From IMG/VR virus record IMGVR_UViG_3300049595_004364, positions 3,322 through 67,321 of that record: a DNA stretch of 64,000 nt. One strand, given 5' to 3'. Numbering within the stretch: position 1 is the first letter of the stretch; each line of letters begins with the position of its first letter. The notes under the pieces were generated by a model. It saw only the letters and a program-made list of their open reading frames with translations, was not told where the DNA came from and ran no database searches. Positions 39,157 to 56,869 of this stretch are shown piece by piece. Made by a program: the position numbers and the translations under genes. This stretch comes from a virus.

Positions 39157-39196
39157 AGTATACTATAAAGAGCAGCAAATGTCAAGAACAATTTTT
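39157..39196 (-). promoter_or_regulatory. Phage early promoter upstream of the ligase C-half
   Basis: AAAAATTGTTC-TTGACA-17-TATACT. Confidence 0.85.
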
Positions 39197-39873
39197 CAGG
39201 GTTGTTCTTGTTGCCAATATTCTGATAACACAGGGAAGTGATACAAAATAATTTCTTTACATTTTTCTGCAATAATTTGATGCTCTTTTTGCGTACCATT
39301 GCCCGCTCTAAGATCAACATAGTGTATCCAACTACGTAGTGTACCTGCCATATATAAGGTAGTCTCTGTAAGACCTTCAGGCAGAAGAGCTCTAGCTTGT
39401 TCTTTAGCTATACCCAACGCTAAAGCAGCATCATAATTTTTTTGCGCTACTTCTACCACTTCTCTTTGCATTCTACTAAATGCTAGATATAGTGGTATTG
39501 CTTCATCATTTTCAGGGTACACACTATTTTGTCTATTTTTTGGGTCTTGTAGCCTTGGCTCCCTGTTTGTAACAAAGTCAGTTGCTTTAGCGTACCTTTG
39601 GCTAAACTCTTGAAAACTAAAGCTTCTGTGCCTAATAATCTGCCTAGAGATATCTCTGGTGGTCTTAATTTCCATGGTAAGATGTACCATTTCAAAAGGA
39701 GACCAGTGATTTTCTTTAATAAGATATTTTAGCAGTTTAGCAGAAGTTTCTTTATTGTTTTGATTGGCGGGATTTGAGACTCTTGCCGTGTAGCTTACTA
39801 AGTCTGCAGCAGTATTACAGTCTGTAATTGCACTAGGTTTAGTAATTCCAATTAAACTAACACTCATATGCAA
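39196..39873 (-). CDS. thyX: Flavin-dependent thymidylate synthase
   Basis: 'HWSPFE', 'RHRSFSFQEFSQRY', 'EQARALLP'. Confidence 0.96.
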   Translation of the reverse strand: MHMSVSLIGITKPSAITDCNTAADLVSYTARVSNPANQNNKETSAKLLKYLIKENHWSPFEMVHLTMEIKTTRDISRQIIRHRSFSFQEFSQRYAKATDFVTNREPRLQDPKNRQNSVYPENDEAIPLYLAFSRMQREVVEVAQKNYDAALALGIAKEQARALLPEGLTETTLYMAGTLRSWIHYVDLRAGNGTQKEHQIIAEKCKEIILYHFPVLSEYWQQEQP

Positions 39874-48287: not shown

Positions 48288-50084
48288 TTAAAAAACTACC
48301 CATCTGGTAGCACTTGCTATTAGCCCTACTGCCGAGTGTTGATATTGCAAGACAAGACTATTTTCATTATTTATAGTTTCAACTCCTGTCCCAACTATGT
48401 TTATTTGCCCTAGTCCTACATTTTGTATATGAAATATTTTTCCTGTATTTGCAACAATTGTAGGTAGGGTAAGAGTAATATTGTTTGTAGCAAATATAAA
48501 TTCGTCGGACAAAGTTAAGGTATCATTGGTAGACACATTTCTAGTAGCCCCGGATCCACCACCGCCACCACCTCCACTACCCGTAGGGCCTATTGGTCCT
48601 TGAATACCCTGTATTCCAGCACCCGTAGCACCTTGAATACCGTCAAAGCCTTGTATACCTTGAATACCCTGACTTCCAGCGCCCGTAGCGCCTTGAATAC
48701 CCGTTCCAGTAGCACCCTGTGAGCCAGTAATACCCTGTATACCCTGAGTTCCAGCTCCCGTAGCGCCTTGTATACCTTGAGCTCCTTGAGAGCCAGTAGA
48801 ATTAATTAATACTGCAAGGTGAACATTATTAGCAAATCCTGTTGTTCCAACTCCCCCAGAAGAAAGTAAAGTAACAGGATATATAATATATGCGTTGGAG
48901 GTGTTGGCATTTACAACAGTTGGGTTACCAGTAAGTTGCCAACTTTGAAAATCAGCACTTTCAGTTATAGACTGTATTCTAAATTGACTACCTGTAACTA
49001 GAGCAGCTAAAATAAATTCTATATCAACGTTATCATGGCTAATATGAAATAAATTAATTTCTGTTGCACTAGTTTGAGTTGCGTTATTCCATAATAGGTG
49101 ACCAGAAGCAGGTTGGCCACTAGTATCTGTGGCATTAGCTCTATAGGTAAAAACAGAGGTAGATCCTCCTAGTACACCTTGAATACCCTGTATGCCTTGA
49201 GTTCCGGCTCCAGTAGCTCCTTGAGTTCCAGCCCCAGTAGTACCTTGAATACCTTGAGTTCCTGTGCCAGTAATACCTTGTATACCCTGAGTTCCGGCAC
49301 CCGTAGCGCCTTGAATACCATTGAAACCTTGAATACCATCAAAGCCTTGAATACCTTGTATTCCAGCACCCGTAGCACCTTGAATACCATCAAAGCCTTG
49401 TATACCTTGAGCACCTTGAATACCATCAAAGCCTTGTATACCTTGAGCACCTTGAATACCATCAAAACCTTGAGTACCTTGGGTACCCTGAATACCTTGA
49501 GTTCCAGCACCGATAGCGCCTTGGGTACCTAAAGCACCTTGAGACCCTGTAATACCCTGTATGCCTTGAGTTCCGGCGCCAGTAGCACCTTGAGTACCTT
49601 GAGTTCCTGTACCAGTAATACCTTGAGTACCTTGAGTCCCAACGCCAGTAGCGCCCTGAGCACCTAAAATACCTTGAGTACCTAAAGTACCTTGAGAACC
49701 AGTAATACCCTGTATACCCTGAGTACCTAAAGTACCTTGAGAACCAGTAATACCCTGCGTGCCTTGAGAACCAGTAATACCCTGTGTGCCTTGTGAGCCA
49801 GTGATACCCTGTGTGCCTTGTGAGCCAGTGATACCCTGTGTGCCTTGTGAGCCAGTGATACCCTGTGTGCCTTGTGGACCAATAATACCTTGAGCTCCGA
49901 CACTACCTTGAGTACCTAAAGCACCTTGGGACCCTGTAATACCTTGAGAGCCCATAGTACCCTGAGTACCTTGAGGCCCTGTAATACCCTGCGGGCCCGC
50001 TGGCCCGATAGGACCAGCTGCACCCGGTAATGTAAGCTCTAGCGTTACCGGAGGAGTTACATAAACTTGGACTACATCACCCAT
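48288..50084 (-). CDS. Collagen-like fibre protein (GTQ/GIQ/GSQ triplets)
   Basis: Two Gly-X-Y blocks; C-terminal 'ITLTLPT...GKIFHI.N...ETIN' fibre domain. Confidence 0.9.
   Translation of the reverse strand: MGDVVQVYVTPPVTLELTLPGAAGPIGPAGPQGITGPQGTQGTMGSQGITGSQGALGTQGSVGAQGIIGPQGTQGITGSQGTQGITGSQGTQGITGSQGTQGITGSQGTQGITGSQGTLGTQGIQGITGSQGTLGTQGILGAQGATGVGTQGTQGITGTGTQGTQGATGAGTQGIQGITGSQGALGTQGAIGAGTQGIQGTQGTQGFDGIQGAQGIQGFDGIQGAQGIQGFDGIQGATGAGIQGIQGFDGIQGFNGIQGATGAGTQGIQGITGTGTQGIQGTTGAGTQGATGAGTQGIQGIQGVLGGSTSVFTYRANATDTSGQPASGHLLWNNATQTSATEINLFHISHDNVDIEFILAALVTGSQFRIQSITESADFQSWQLTGNPTVVNANTSNAYIIYPVTLLSSGGVGTTGFANNVHLAVLINSTGSQGAQGIQGATGAGTQGIQGITGSQGATGTGIQGATGAGSQGIQGIQGFDGIQGATGAGIQGIQGPIGPTGSGGGGGGGSGATRNVSTNDTLTLSDEFIFATNNITLTLPTIVANTGKIFHIQNVGLGQINIVGTGVETINNENSLVLQYQHSAVGLIASATRWVVF
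49735..49875 (-). repeat. 27-bp tandem repeat encoding GSQGTQGIT
   Basis: ccctgtgtgccttgtgagccagtgata repeated exactly three times, plus degenerate copies. Confidence 0.9.
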
Positions 50085-50507: not shown

Positions 50508-50601
50508 TGGTGCCCCCGATAGGATTCGAACCTATGACGCTCTCTAATCTGGAGACGATGCTGGATATAAGCCAGGTGTTTTACCTCTAAACTACAGGGG
50601 C
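50508..50601 (-). tRNA. tRNA with anticodon UAU (nominally Ile) and an atypical long variable region
   Basis: GCCCCTG/CGGGGGC acceptor stem, D-arm GTTT/AAAC, CTGG-CTTATAT-CCAG, ATAGG-TTCGAAT-CCTAT, encoded CCA; 94 nt. Confidence 0.85.
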
Positions 50602-53648: not shown

Positions 53649-53845
53649 TACTCTAGACCATCTGCAATTTCTTCGAGAATTTCATAGGCGGTCTCATCGT
53701 CGTACTGATCTGCAAGATAGTCGCGAAGGGCAACAAGCAGTGCAATAGCAAAATCTGCTTCTTTATTTTGCATAAGCTCATTCACTGCTTCTTTTGCTTG
53801 CCCAAGCAAGATGTCATCTTCTAGCATTTCTTCAAATTCGGTCAT
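53648..53845 (-). CDS. Acidic hypothetical protein
   Basis: Coupled to neighbours; GAGA RBS. Confidence 0.6.
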   Translation of the reverse strand: MTEFEEMLEDDILLGQAKEAVNELMQNKEADFAIALLVALRDYLADQYDDETAYEILEEIADGLE

Positions 53846-54231
53846 TTGTTGTTCTCATAGTTAAATTTAACATAAATGGATTCTATGCCATTATCAATAA
53901 TAAAGGCATCAATACTATCAAAGTATTTTCTAGCAATAGTAATTCGTTGATTACCAATTATTGCTAAATAAGGTTTGCTAGGGTCGTAAGGAAGTTTATT
54001 ACTTAGCCCTTGCACTGCTTTTTCATGCTCTTGAATAGTATTCTTACATACTATAACAGGAAACTTCATGCCTGTCAAGATAGATTTTTCAAGTTCTTCA
54101 CTGGGAGACTGAAGTACAGCATCTGCTATATCTGATAGAGGAATAGCAACTGCTTTTAGTTCTTTGATTTGAATTCCTTCATCAAAGAAATAATAAGTAA
54201 GCTCTTGTAACCCAGCATTTAAATTAGACAC
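53842..54231 (-). CDS. ParB/Srx-like domain protein
   Basis: 'LEKSI..GMKFPVIV...IIGNQR..IAR'. Confidence 0.55.
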   Translation of the reverse strand: MSNLNAGLQELTYYFFDEGIQIKELKAVAIPLSDIADAVLQSPSEELEKSILTGMKFPVIVCKNTIQEHEKAVQGLSNKLPYDPSKPYLAIIGNQRITIARKYFDSIDAFIIDNGIESIYVKFNYENNK

Positions 54232-54234
54232 GAC

Positions 54235-54525
54235 CTACTTCTCCGTTGCTGTGTCTTCAAGGTACTTCCAGCCTTCCTGCAAGAGTTTAATATAAGTGTC
54301 TAGTTCTTGCATATTTGACCTATACTTATCAAAGTTTTCGGCATCTAGTGCAAAGTACTCTTGCTCTGGTAAATATTGCCAGGTTAGTTCTTCTAGAGCT
54401 ACTTCTGGTCTTGTTGGCGCATCAACAACATATACGGGAACTTCCACATATTTAGTTGTTGTGCACGCCCCCAAAAATACTGGAAGAATTAGTGATGCTG
54501 GTAATAAATTCGTTTGTATCTTCAT
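54235..54525 (-). CDS. o-spanin (Rz1-like lipoprotein)
   Basis: Lipobox LGAC, proline-rich linker, overlaps the 3' end of the i-spanin gene. Confidence 0.75.
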   Translation of the reverse strand: MKIQTNLLPASLILPVFLGACTTTKYVEVPVYVVDAPTRPEVALEELTWQYLPEQEYFALDAENFDKYRSNMQELDTYIKLLQEGWKYLEDTATEK

Positions 54526-54832
54526 TTGCGGTCTCTACTATCACCTCTGCTGGCGCTGTCTTTACAATCTCTCTGTACCGTATAACAGGCTTTTCAACAA
54601 TTTTTATTTGTTCTACTCTACTATTATATTCTTCTAGCTTTTTAGCTTGATCGTCTATAATCTTTTTTTCAAACTTAATACGCGCTTGAAGCTCTTCTAT
54701 TGTATCAAGCTGCGTGTTTAATAAGGCTTTTTGTGTCGCTATTGTTTCACTAAAGCTATTGCTCTGAGCATAAAAGTAGTAACACGCTAGCGACAAAGCT
54801 GCAAAAGAGCCACTAATTATCCAAATTTTCAT
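54452..54832 (-). CDS. i-spanin (Rz-like)
   Basis: N-terminal TM followed by coiled coil. Confidence 0.75.
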   Translation of the reverse strand: MKIWIISGSFAALSLACYYFYAQSNSFSETIATQKALLNTQLDTIEELQARIKFEKKIIDDQAKKLEEYNSRVEQIKIVEKPVIRYREIVKTAPAEVIVETANEDTNEFITSITNSSSIFGGVHNN

Positions 54833-55544: not shown

Positions 55545-55739
55545 TTACGGCGTAACTTCAGTTACAACTTCTTCAGTAACTTCAGTGGGGATTTCAGCCA
55601 CAACTTCTTCGGCTACAGCTTCCGCTACAACTTCTTCAGCTACAACTTCCGTTACAACTTCTTCAGCTACAACTTCTTGAGTAGGCTCAGCACAAGCGGC
55701 CAGTGCAGCCAATGCGGCTACTGCAAATACAAATTTCAT
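55545..55739 (-). CDS. Small acidic lipoprotein with EVV(A/T)E repeats
   Basis: Lipobox LAAC; 15-bp repeats; AGGAG RBS. Confidence 0.8.
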   Translation of the reverse strand: MKFVFAVAALAALAACAEPTQEVVAEEVVTEVVAEEVVAEAVAEEVVAEIPTEVTEEVVTEVTP

Positions 55740-55757
55740 TTTTTCTCCTATGGGTTA

Positions 55758-56080
55758 AGCGGGTCCGTTCTGTTGCTAGGTGGAACCCATACCCCCGAAA
55801 ATTAAGCGGCTAGCGCGTAATCCTCAACAATGCTGTTATCGTTTGCATTTATAACGTTTGATCTTTTAGGGAAATCACTCCCAGTTGTCCACTATCGTTG
55901 TTCGTCTGTCGAAACTATATCTGGCCCATCAAATATATACTACTGCGCTACATCCACATGCGCGTACTTATGACTCCATGCTTCCAACCACTCTGGAGTA
56001 CCCTTTGGGTAGGGTAGTATATATTTGGTGGACCAGCTGGGTACTGCCCCCAGGTCCAAATCGACTTATTGTCGCTTCAT
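55758..56080 (-). ncRNA. ssrA: Circularly permuted (two-piece) tmRNA
   Basis: Acceptor piece ends CTGGG-GGCAGTA-CCCAG-CTGGTCC-ACCA (CCA at 56028-56026); coding piece starts GGGCCAG at 55927, giving the G3:U70 pair; tag ANDNSIVEDYALAA* at 55846-55802; outer ends approximate. Confidence 0.95.
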
Positions 56081-56378
56081 ACAACTATATCTTCTCTAGG
56101 AACAATTCCAAGAGAGGATTGCTGGTTACTAATTACTACGTTCATAGCTATATCAGACGAATCTTCTACAGTACATAGAATTAGTGCAATACTATCTATT
56201 GCTTTAACTATATCTTCTTTATCTAGACCAAGTTTACTTTGGTGGATAAATAGTTTGTGAGAGAAGTTCGCGGCGTACTGAGCGTACACCGCGTTCATCA
56301 CATGCAGTTCCTGAGCTAGCTCATTCACTTCTGCCGGCCAAGCCGACGGATTACCTATAATTTCTTTTAGCATATTAC
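56077..56378 (-). CDS. Hypothetical protein
   Basis: Probable start MLKEII at a TAATG overlap with the upstream gene. Confidence 0.55.
56085..56112 (-). promoter_or_regulatory. Probable tmRNA promoter
   Basis: TTGGAA-16-TATAGT just upstream of the acceptor piece. Confidence 0.5.
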
Positions 56379-56869
56379 ACATTCGTATTAGTGATAGTGA
56401 AAGTTCCTGAGGCAGTACGCCCATAAATATCCGCTGCTGTTACTCTAACAGTTATAACTTCTGTTGCAGTAACTGCTGGTCTAGTACCTGCAAAGGTTCT
56501 AGTTGATGGCGTAAACGTAATCCACGTTGGTAGTGGTGCACCACCATCTAGTGTTGCAGTATACGTAATAGGAGCAGCTTCAGGGTCGTTGAAAGTATTC
56601 AGCGCAAAAGTGTAGTTGAGAGCCGAAAGTTCATTGCCTGTTTGGTTAACAAGAGCATTCTGTAGGGTAGGGGCTACATTTACAGCTCTACCTGCATAAA
56701 TAAGAGAATGTTTCATACCTCTTATAAAGCTACCAAATACGCGTCTAACACGCATTGGTGTCGCACCGGTATTTAAGGCTACAAATTCTGCTCGTGTTGG
56801 CACAGCGCCAATATCGTTGGAAACAAAAGATGCTGCAATGGTATCTCTAAGTCTAGAAAGTCTACCCAT
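56375..56869 (-). CDS. Putative capsid decoration protein (helical N-domain + cadherin/Ig-like domain; T5 pb10-like layout)
   Basis: C-terminal 'APTL..Q...F.DPE...TYTATL..G.PLPTWITF...RTF.GT...VRVTA.D' CADG/Ig fold. Confidence 0.6.
   Translation of the reverse strand: MGRLSRLRDTIAASFVSNDIGAVPTRAEFVALNTGATPMRVRRVFGSFIRGMKHSLIYAGRAVNVAPTLQNALVNQTGNELSALNYTFALNTFNDPEAAPITYTATLDGGAPLPTWITFTPSTRTFAGTRPAVTATEVITVRVTAADIYGRTASGTFTITNTNV

Follow-up and report, generated by a model that had tools for sequence, protein, structure and literature searches.

The DNA analyzed here, called the window below, is a stretch of 64,000 nucleotides (nt) that covers bases 3322-67321 of a linear virus record of 67,321 bp (IMGVR_UViG_3300049595_004364; 65% complete according to CheckV). 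Its minus strand carries a gene for a two-piece, permuted transfer-messenger RNA (tmRNA; gene ssrA) of the alphaproteobacterial type, in which an acceptor piece comes first, followed by an intervening sequence (the spacer) and then by the coding piece. The elements of the gene are as follows.

55758..56142, minus: whole permuted tmRNA gene, matched end to end by RF01849
56026..56086, minus: acceptor piece; the RF04321 alignment starts at 56086, and the ARAGORN 3′ tRNA domain is 56064..56026
within 56026..56086, minus: 5′ helix strand AGUUGUA of the acceptor piece
56053..56037, minus: T-arm CTGGG-GGCAGTA-CCCAG (loop GGCAGUA), from the sequence
56036..56030, minus: acceptor 3′ strand CTGGTCC, from the sequence
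56029..56026, minus: encoded ACCA, from the sequence
55928..56025, minus: spacer, 98 nt, between the ARAGORN 3′ and 5′ tRNA domains; a large insertion in both Rfam models
56014..56025, minus: 5′ strand of the closing helix, AAUAUAUACUAC, paired with 55943..55932 in predicted folds
55944..56013, minus: inner spacer, 70 nt, with three small hairpins in the minimum-energy fold
55928..55943, minus: 3′ strand of the closing helix, GUAGUAUAUAUU, with the leader UGAU directly 5′ of G1, from predicted folds
55758..55927, minus: coding piece; the ARAGORN 5′ tRNA domain is 55927..55901, and the RF01849 alignment reaches 55758
55927..55921, minus: acceptor 5′ strand GGGCCAG, from the sequence
55802..55846, minus: tag reading frame ANDNSIVEDYALAA and stop codon, from ARAGORN
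3′ region of the coding piece, minus: conserved CCUAGCAACAGAA stretch, from the sequence

The gene was called by ARAGORN as a permuted tmRNA at 55711-56118 on the minus strand. Positions 55-93 of the gene are its 3′ tRNA domain and positions 192-218 its 5′ tRNA domain, and these borders agree with a reading of the sequence by eye. The gene also matches two Rfam models over their full lengths: RF04321 (the merged tmRNA_permuted model; 113.1 bits versus a gathering score of 47, model positions 1-213 of 213, aligned over 55802-56086) and RF01849 (alpha_tmRNA; 108.8 bits versus a gathering score of 50, E = 9e−29, model positions 1-355 of 355). Within its clan, the alpha model ranks first, and the GGCAGUA T-loop aligns with its consensus GGGGGCgGUACCC. 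Because ARAGORN and two Rfam models scoring well over their gathering thresholds all find it, the tmRNA call is far beyond chance.

The hallmarks of an alpha-type tmRNA are in place. The acceptor stem has 7 bp (GGGCCAG:CUGGUCC) and is followed by ACCA, and the G3:U70 pair, the discriminator base A73, and the CCA end are all present. The resume context reads tataaat-gca, with the ARAGORN resume consensus tataaatgcaaacgataa at 55853..55836, and the tag frame is intact, running through 14 codons from GCA to GCU before UAA, with a tag that ends in ALAA. An earlier reading of the letters alone (the original prediction) had named the T-arm, the acceptor strand, ACCA, GGGCCAG, G3:U70, the resume context, and the tag on this strand, and every one of them is there; ARAGORN and RF01849, which it had proposed as checks, returned the permuted call with its tag and the score given above.

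Conservation and genomic setting of the gene

The gene lies in the middle of the genome with short phage open reading frames (ORFs) on either side, and not at an integration junction. A syntenic copy is found in a second viral record, G005 (100,125 bp, 96% complete), which was picked from viral contigs carrying the alpha-type acceptor motif. G005 is collinear with the window: 80 window ORFs are matched in order by tblastn, the DNA polymerase is 68% identical, and the subunits of ribonucleotide reductase (RNR) are 76-80% identical. The G005 tmRNA (108.5 bits) is flanked by homologues of the window ORFs 54452-54832 and 56077-56424. The claim of the original prediction that the phage supplies its own tmRNA is thus borne out by the position of the gene inside a virus record, by the phage genes on both sides, and by the copy in G005.

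Comparison of the two genes revealed changes that preserve pairing. The acceptor stem GGGCCAG/CUGGUCC is GGGGGCG/CGCCUCC in G005, in which pairs 4 to 6 are changed on both sides while G3:U70 is kept, and one pair of the T-arm is changed from U:A to C:G. Identity between the window and G005 is 77% in the acceptor core, 66% in the 5′ part of the coding piece, 61% in the region before the tag, 60% in the tag frame, and 36% (25/70) in the inner spacer. Because compensatory changes and synteny are seen in phages whose polymerases are only 68% identical, we argue for long-term selection on the tmRNA, as judged from these sequence comparisons. Beyond G005, a search with RF01849 in 35 records whose DNA polymerase is 52-65% identical to that of the window gave 0 matches, which carries little weight, since all 35 are fragments of 5-46 kb; in only one of them (G001) does the sequence extend about 32 kb upstream of the polymerase, and the tmRNA is absent there. 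In viral contigs, a back-translated pattern of the tag gave 0 matches, and the neighboring protein 53842-54231, used as a query, gave 14 pattern matches, 0 of them confirmed.

The phage genomes lack a gene for the protein partner of tmRNA. SmpB (PF01668) was found in neither of the two records searched, the whole 67-kb record and the 96%-complete G005, with a control search that was positive in 10 of 14 named genomes. The absence of smpB, which the original prediction had noted for the window, therefore extends to the whole record and to G005.

This absence is one of the points that could be raised for a gene that does not work, whether it were a fragment captured from a host, a pseudogene in decay, or an RNA that titrates SmpB and so blocks trans-translation in the host. 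A tmRNA of mycobacteriophage DS6A that consists of the tRNA-like domain only is reported to inhibit tmRNA, according to descriptions in PMC4131195 and PMC11915505, and the window's tag matches none of the tags in the cellular loci listed (defined below). Against a non-working gene stand the end-to-end matches to both Rfam models, the intact tag frame with ALAA and a stop codon, the presence of G3:U70, A73, and CCA, the compensatory changes together with synteny at 68% polymerase identity, and the mid-genome position between phage genes without an integration junction. We regard a non-working gene as highly improbable.

The intervening sequence

To place the spacer among its counterparts, viral contigs and species-representative genomes were scanned with the motif GGGGGCRGTACCCNGCNNNNCCACCA, which gave at least 120 loci from each; 120 viral (L002-L121) and 120 cellular (L164-L283) loci were sampled, and all viral and cellular comparisons in this text refer to these matches listed. 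Spacer length was taken in two ways, from the ARAGORN domain borders and by a rule of our own, which looks downstream for the first 7-mer able to pair with the acceptor strand and followed by TYGAY. For viral calls the two agree in 73 of 74 cases, and for cellular calls in 100 of 101.

Spacers in the viral loci are longer than those in the cellular loci (Mann-Whitney test, P = 1.7e−7, kinship and duplicates ignored). The cellular median is 29 nt (114 of 120 loci; interquartile range, 23-38; maximum, 139), and the viral median is 59 nt (111 of 120 loci; interquartile range, 29-96; maximum, 224). A length of at least 98 nt is reached by a single cellular spacer and by 26 viral ones. The spacer of the window, described in the original prediction as unusually long, is so only against cellular genes, whose spacers are short as had been stated there; for a phage copy, 98 nt is ordinary. 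These distributions provide a baseline, in which cellular spacers are short and phage spacers are long and variable, and in which spacer length alone is no reason to flag a phage tmRNA.

The ends of the spacer are paired. In the predicted fold, the closing inverted repeat has 12 bp within the spacer, or 14 bp counting C75 and A76, and in the whole-gene fold the acceptor stem runs on through A73:U, a C74/A mismatch, C75:G, and A76:U into the 12 spacer pairs. The whole 98-nt spacer is more stable than its shuffles (z = −2.33; 5 of 200 shuffles), because the closing helix contributes this stability. Such a helix is widespread. With pairs counted in a flexible register, as many spacers start with a mismatch, and with unique spacers of at least 20 nt, a terminal helix of at least 6 bp was found in 75 of 84 viral spacers (16% in shuffles; median, 10 bp) and in 62 of 106 cellular spacers (14% in shuffles; median, 6 bp), while 22 viral and 0 cellular spacers have at least 12 bp. 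The viral spacers have 71 distinct first 10-mers, and therefore the helix is kept by covariation. TGAT forms the 3′ end of 64 of the 97 unique viral spacers, and likewise of the window's. The long closing repeat seen in the original prediction is thus real, but it is a family-wide feature of the precursor and no peculiarity of this locus. The helix probably serves to keep both halves of the acceptor stem in register.

Inside the helix, the picture differs. With a folding energy of −18.0 kcal/mol, the inner 70 nt do no better than chance (z = −0.15): the shuffles average −17.5 kcal/mol, and 76 of the 200 equal or surpass the inner spacer. The three internal hairpins noted in the original prediction do appear in the minimum-energy fold, but they are not backed by any stability beyond that of shuffles, and the predicted fold of the G005 spacer is one long hairpin instead. 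No Rfam family, the tRNA model included, matches the spacer at E ≤ 1, ARAGORN finds no tRNA in it, and its longest ATG frame has 3 codons, so that the spacer holds no ORF, tRNA, or Rfam family that would count as cargo. A degenerate tRNA was considered for its cloverleaf-like topology (a stem and three hairpins) and was rejected, as both ARAGORN and the Rfam tRNA model were negative.

Metagenome contigs allow a comparison among close strains. The locus is present in lake and freshwater metagenome runs (sampled words present: X1, 1.00; X2, 0.90; X3, 0.79; X4, 0.57), of which X1 may be the origin of the record, and these data point to fresh water as the habitat. Contigs from X2 and X3 have the same spacer letters as the window, with flanks that are identical too. 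In a 574-nt contig from X4 (depth 4.3), which has 0 differences from the window over 55884-55933 and 4 over 56026-56473, 76 other letters replace 92 spacer letters of the window (55934-56025) between flanks that are about 99% identical; in a second X4 contig, the match to the window ends at 56024. The X4 contig may represent a strain-level swap of the spacer, for which the evidence is thin: a single contig, at a depth of 4.3 and a likeness threshold of 85%.

The original prediction had suggested that the folded spacer, once excised, could persist as a stable RNA and have its own role; a regulatory or decoy RNA would be an example. Some features would fit such an RNA: the long closing helix and the stability of the whole spacer, the similar lengths in the syntenic phages (98 nt in the window and 95 nt in G005), the greater length of viral than of cellular spacers, and the unchanged letters in X2 and X3, though the flanks are identical there as well. 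The closing helix, however, is accounted for as a general feature of the precursor, the inner part folds like its shuffles and has no Rfam match, its identity to G005 is 36% with a different predicted architecture, and other letters stand in its place in a near-identical X4 strain. By conservation of sequence or structure and by folding beyond chance, the spacer does not qualify as an independent functional RNA, and with its inner part unconserved in G005 the proposal fails on a test that the original prediction had itself named. We consider the second-RNA proposal improbable; the inner 70 nt look like unconstrained filler in a tolerant loop.

A different proposal is that the spacer is a slot which gains and loses cargo, for example small genes and tRNAs, and that its 98 nt in the window represent an insert, either decayed or strain-specific, exchangeable by recombination between tmRNA genes. 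Cargo does occur in this position elsewhere. Spacers that contain a tRNA-Ala or some repetitive element are described in PMC11915505, as is a permuted gene 1152 bp long, and 9 of the 29 unique viral spacers of at least 95 nt combine a Shine-Dalgarno-like motif with an ORF of at least 20 codons and have an ATG in their first 30 nt, among them two homologous ORF pairs (L019/L071 and L009/L078). With such cargo-bearing permuted tmRNAs, in that description and in the viral contigs with small ORFs, the window shares a long, stem-closed spacer between the pieces. The replaced spacer of the X4 contig would also fit exchange, as would the acceptor arm: its exact 32 nt were found at 3 loci in metagenome contigs and 4 in viral contigs, and 6 of these 7 share the arm alone with the window and are other phages, with unrelated spacers of 88 or 99 nt. 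(At the seventh, L284, our pairing rule gave no coding piece.) What separates the window from the cargo-bearing genes is that its own spacer has no recognizable cargo, there being no ORF of more than 3 codons, tRNA, or Rfam match; moreover, a former gene has left no demonstrable trace, and the replacement is seen in the one low-depth X4 contig. We think it unlikely that the window's spacer is a cargo slot in this sense.

The observations on phages at large could be combined into a broader picture, in which the phage tmRNA spacer is a fast-turnover, stem-closed slot that is expanded relative to cells, exchanged as a cassette between near-identical strains, and often loaded with small genes; the 98 nt of the window would then be a cargo-less or decayed allele, and length or helix would be selected for ordered processing. 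We offer this picture tentatively and hold it to be doubtful.

Many of the long viral spacers are nearly filled by a small ORF of 27-63 codons (several further ones have 38-63). These occur at L020, L092, L071, L096, L019, L095, L064, L045, and L078, and also at L037, L042, L049, and L009. Some of the spacer ORFs are hydrophobic, and some continue into the coding piece.

Proposed function, known systems, and host

We propose that the window encodes a functional, phage-borne, alpha-type two-piece tmRNA, the inner spacer of which is filler, and we assign to this reading a probability of about 0.78. A single precursor would be transcribed in the order acceptor piece, spacer, and coding piece. The terminal helix of the spacer would stack on the 7-bp acceptor stem and keep the two halves in register, RNase P would generate the 5′ end of the coding piece by cleaving just before G1, and trimming would bring the acceptor piece to its encoded CCA. 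The 98-nt spacer would be released and then degraded, and it is expected to be absent from the mature tmRNA, while the two pieces would remain base-paired. Processing into two pieces is well known from Caulobacter, with descriptions in PMC9004378 and PMC11915505. The mature RNA would be charged by the host alanyl-tRNA synthetase (AlaRS) through G3:U70 and A73, and its partner would be host SmpB, on which the phage would rely because it has none of its own. During infection, ANDNSIVEDYALAA would be added to peptides on stalled ribosomes, which would mark the peptides for host proteases and release the ribosomes.

Several observations weigh against this reading. The acceptance of the RNA and its tag by the SmpB, AlaRS, and proteases of the host is presumed. 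The RNA run X14 yielded contigs of relatives that are 85-90% identical, which cannot show RNA ends. A scan of the locus brought up no promoter or terminator that convinces: there was 1 promoter-like site (2.1 expected), which lies inside the acceptor piece, and 1 terminator-like site (1.1 expected), which lies on the opposite strand. Finally, the stability of the whole spacer, its like length in G005, and the longer spacers of viral loci could mean that length or bulk is selected in phages.

Two-piece tmRNAs of phages are a described class, to which the gene in the window adds a member. In Melnitz, a phage of OM43, Buchholz et al. (2022; PMC9004378) described a two-piece ssrA of the alpha type. 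The same paper counts 402 phage genomes with a tmRNA gene among 18,146, with 133 unique tmRNAs, of which 53 are two-piece according to ARAGORN, and 50 of these 53 come from marine or aquatic phages. A list of phages with ssrA is given by Hudson et al. (2014; PMC4131195), and 79 unique bacteriophage tmRNAs are counted in the 2025 tmRNA database paper (PMC11915505).

With the Caulobacter-type alpha two-piece tmRNA (RF01849/RF04321), the gene shares the acceptor-spacer-coding order, the GGCAGUA T-loop, G3:U70, the encoded ACCA, a tag of the form ANDN...LAA, the conserved 3′ CCUAGCAACAGAA stretch, and full-length model matches. It differs in its phage carrier, in a genome without smpB, in a spacer of 98 nt versus a cellular median of 29 nt, and in a closing helix of 12 bp versus a cellular median of 6 bp, a length reached by 0 of the 106 cellular spacers listed. 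It also resembles the tmRNAs of Melnitz and the pelagimyophages, which, as far as they are described in PMC9004378, are likewise alpha-type permuted ssrA genes of aquatic phages without smpB and lie among phage genes. It differs from that type in its carrier, which comes from lake water, has a genome of about 100 kb with T5-like replication genes, and is siphovirus-like and not a T4-like myophage. Also in contrast to the Melnitz description, a glutamine riboswitch was not found at the window locus with Rfam. Among deposited phages, none was matched by the 651-nt locus in a blastn ("distant") search.

In the titles and abstracts of the literature searched, no T5-like siphovirus from fresh water was described as having a tmRNA, which is weak evidence. 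The gene brings a freshwater, T5-like siphovirus lineage into the company of phages that have their own trans-translation RNA. It also supports the view that large aquatic phages sustain host translation with RNAs of their own (21 tRNAs and a tmRNA in G005) while relying on host SmpB.

The class of the host is a separate matter. The original prediction placed the phage in an alphaproteobacterium, and the GGCAGUA T-loop and the ANDN...LAA tag do fit that pattern. The wider evidence fits it less well. As in the aquatic-phage two-piece tmRNAs, the nearest tmRNA sequences are viral: the best 15 BLAST hits for each piece are all viral contigs, with 0 from the 120 cellular loci listed. Gammaproteobacteria are the hosts of the deposited phages with the closest DNA polymerases (43-44% identity), and the host of Melnitz, described in PMC9004378 as an OM43 phage with an alpha-type ssrA, is not an alphaproteobacterium. 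These points would agree with an alpha-type gene that moves among aquatic phages regardless of host class. Cultured relatives at 44% polymerase identity, however, say little about the host, and because host SmpB, AlaRS, and RNase P must accept the RNA, an alpha-type host is the simplest match. We find an alphaproteobacterial host plausible and rather probable, though unproven, and a host from another class the less probable alternative, but one to be taken seriously.

Neighboring genes and the rest of the phage genome

The tmRNA gene is bordered by two short ORFs.

56077..56424, minus: upstream ORF, 115 amino acids, with last codons that overlap the tmRNA 5′ end; no Pfam family
55545..55739, minus: downstream ORF, 64 amino acids, with AGGAG-N6-ATG directly past the tmRNA; no Pfam family

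In G005, a homologue of the upstream ORF (36.8% identity over 68 amino acids, E = 1.5e−6) occupies the syntenic position. In the downstream ORF, the N-terminus MKFVFAVAALAALAAC (...LAAC) looks like a lipoprotein signal, judging from its residues, and is followed by tandem acidic repeats of the EEVV type.

Elsewhere in the window, matches to PHROGs include tail genes (major tail protein, tape measure protein, minor tail protein, J-like central fiber, and collagen-like tail fiber) and replication genes (DNA polymerase, DnaB-like helicase, a second helicase, the RNR large subunit, and an SbcC-like nuclease). Pfam matches add ThyX, PhoH, a cell-wall hydrolase, and the RNR small subunit. Judged by DNA polymerase, the best-matching deposited phages have genomes of about 106-117 kb and infect Erwinia, Aeromonas, Pantoea, and Klebsiella; we take them to be T5-like Demerecviridae. 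The carrier is an uncultured, siphovirus-like freshwater phage of about 100 kb, the nearest deposited relatives of which are T5-like.

The repeats of the collagen-like fiber gene (48288-50084, minus strand) have matches of 64-73% DNA identity at many separate sites of G005 (about 30.5-36.8 kb, 68 kb, and 99.6 kb), which looks like a possible family of repeat-bearing fiber genes in G005 and the window.

G005 has 21 tRNA genes, 18 of them in one 5-kb array (L158: 3653-8946; L159). Only two were seen in the 65%-complete window record, and the tRNA array of the window phage probably lies in the missing part of the record. One of the two, tRNA-Ile(UAU), is found in both phages (window 50508-50601, minus strand; G005 region L160: 3829-3921) at a length of 93-94 nt and has a 20-nt, hairpin-forming insertion in its variable region, a class-II-like long arm that is unusual for tRNA-Ile. 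In the window, it adjoins the other, tRNA-Ser(UGA).

In the window, thyX (39196-39873) lies 16 kb away from the tmRNA. In many other viral contigs, ThyX homologues that are 50-60% identical to its product are encoded within a few kilobases of a tmRNA (L090, L064, L076, L030, L009, L051, and others), and the description of Melnitz in PMC9004378 likewise places ThyX near the tmRNA. The coding pieces of four of these loci (L076, L030, L090, and L064) are among the closest to that of the window.

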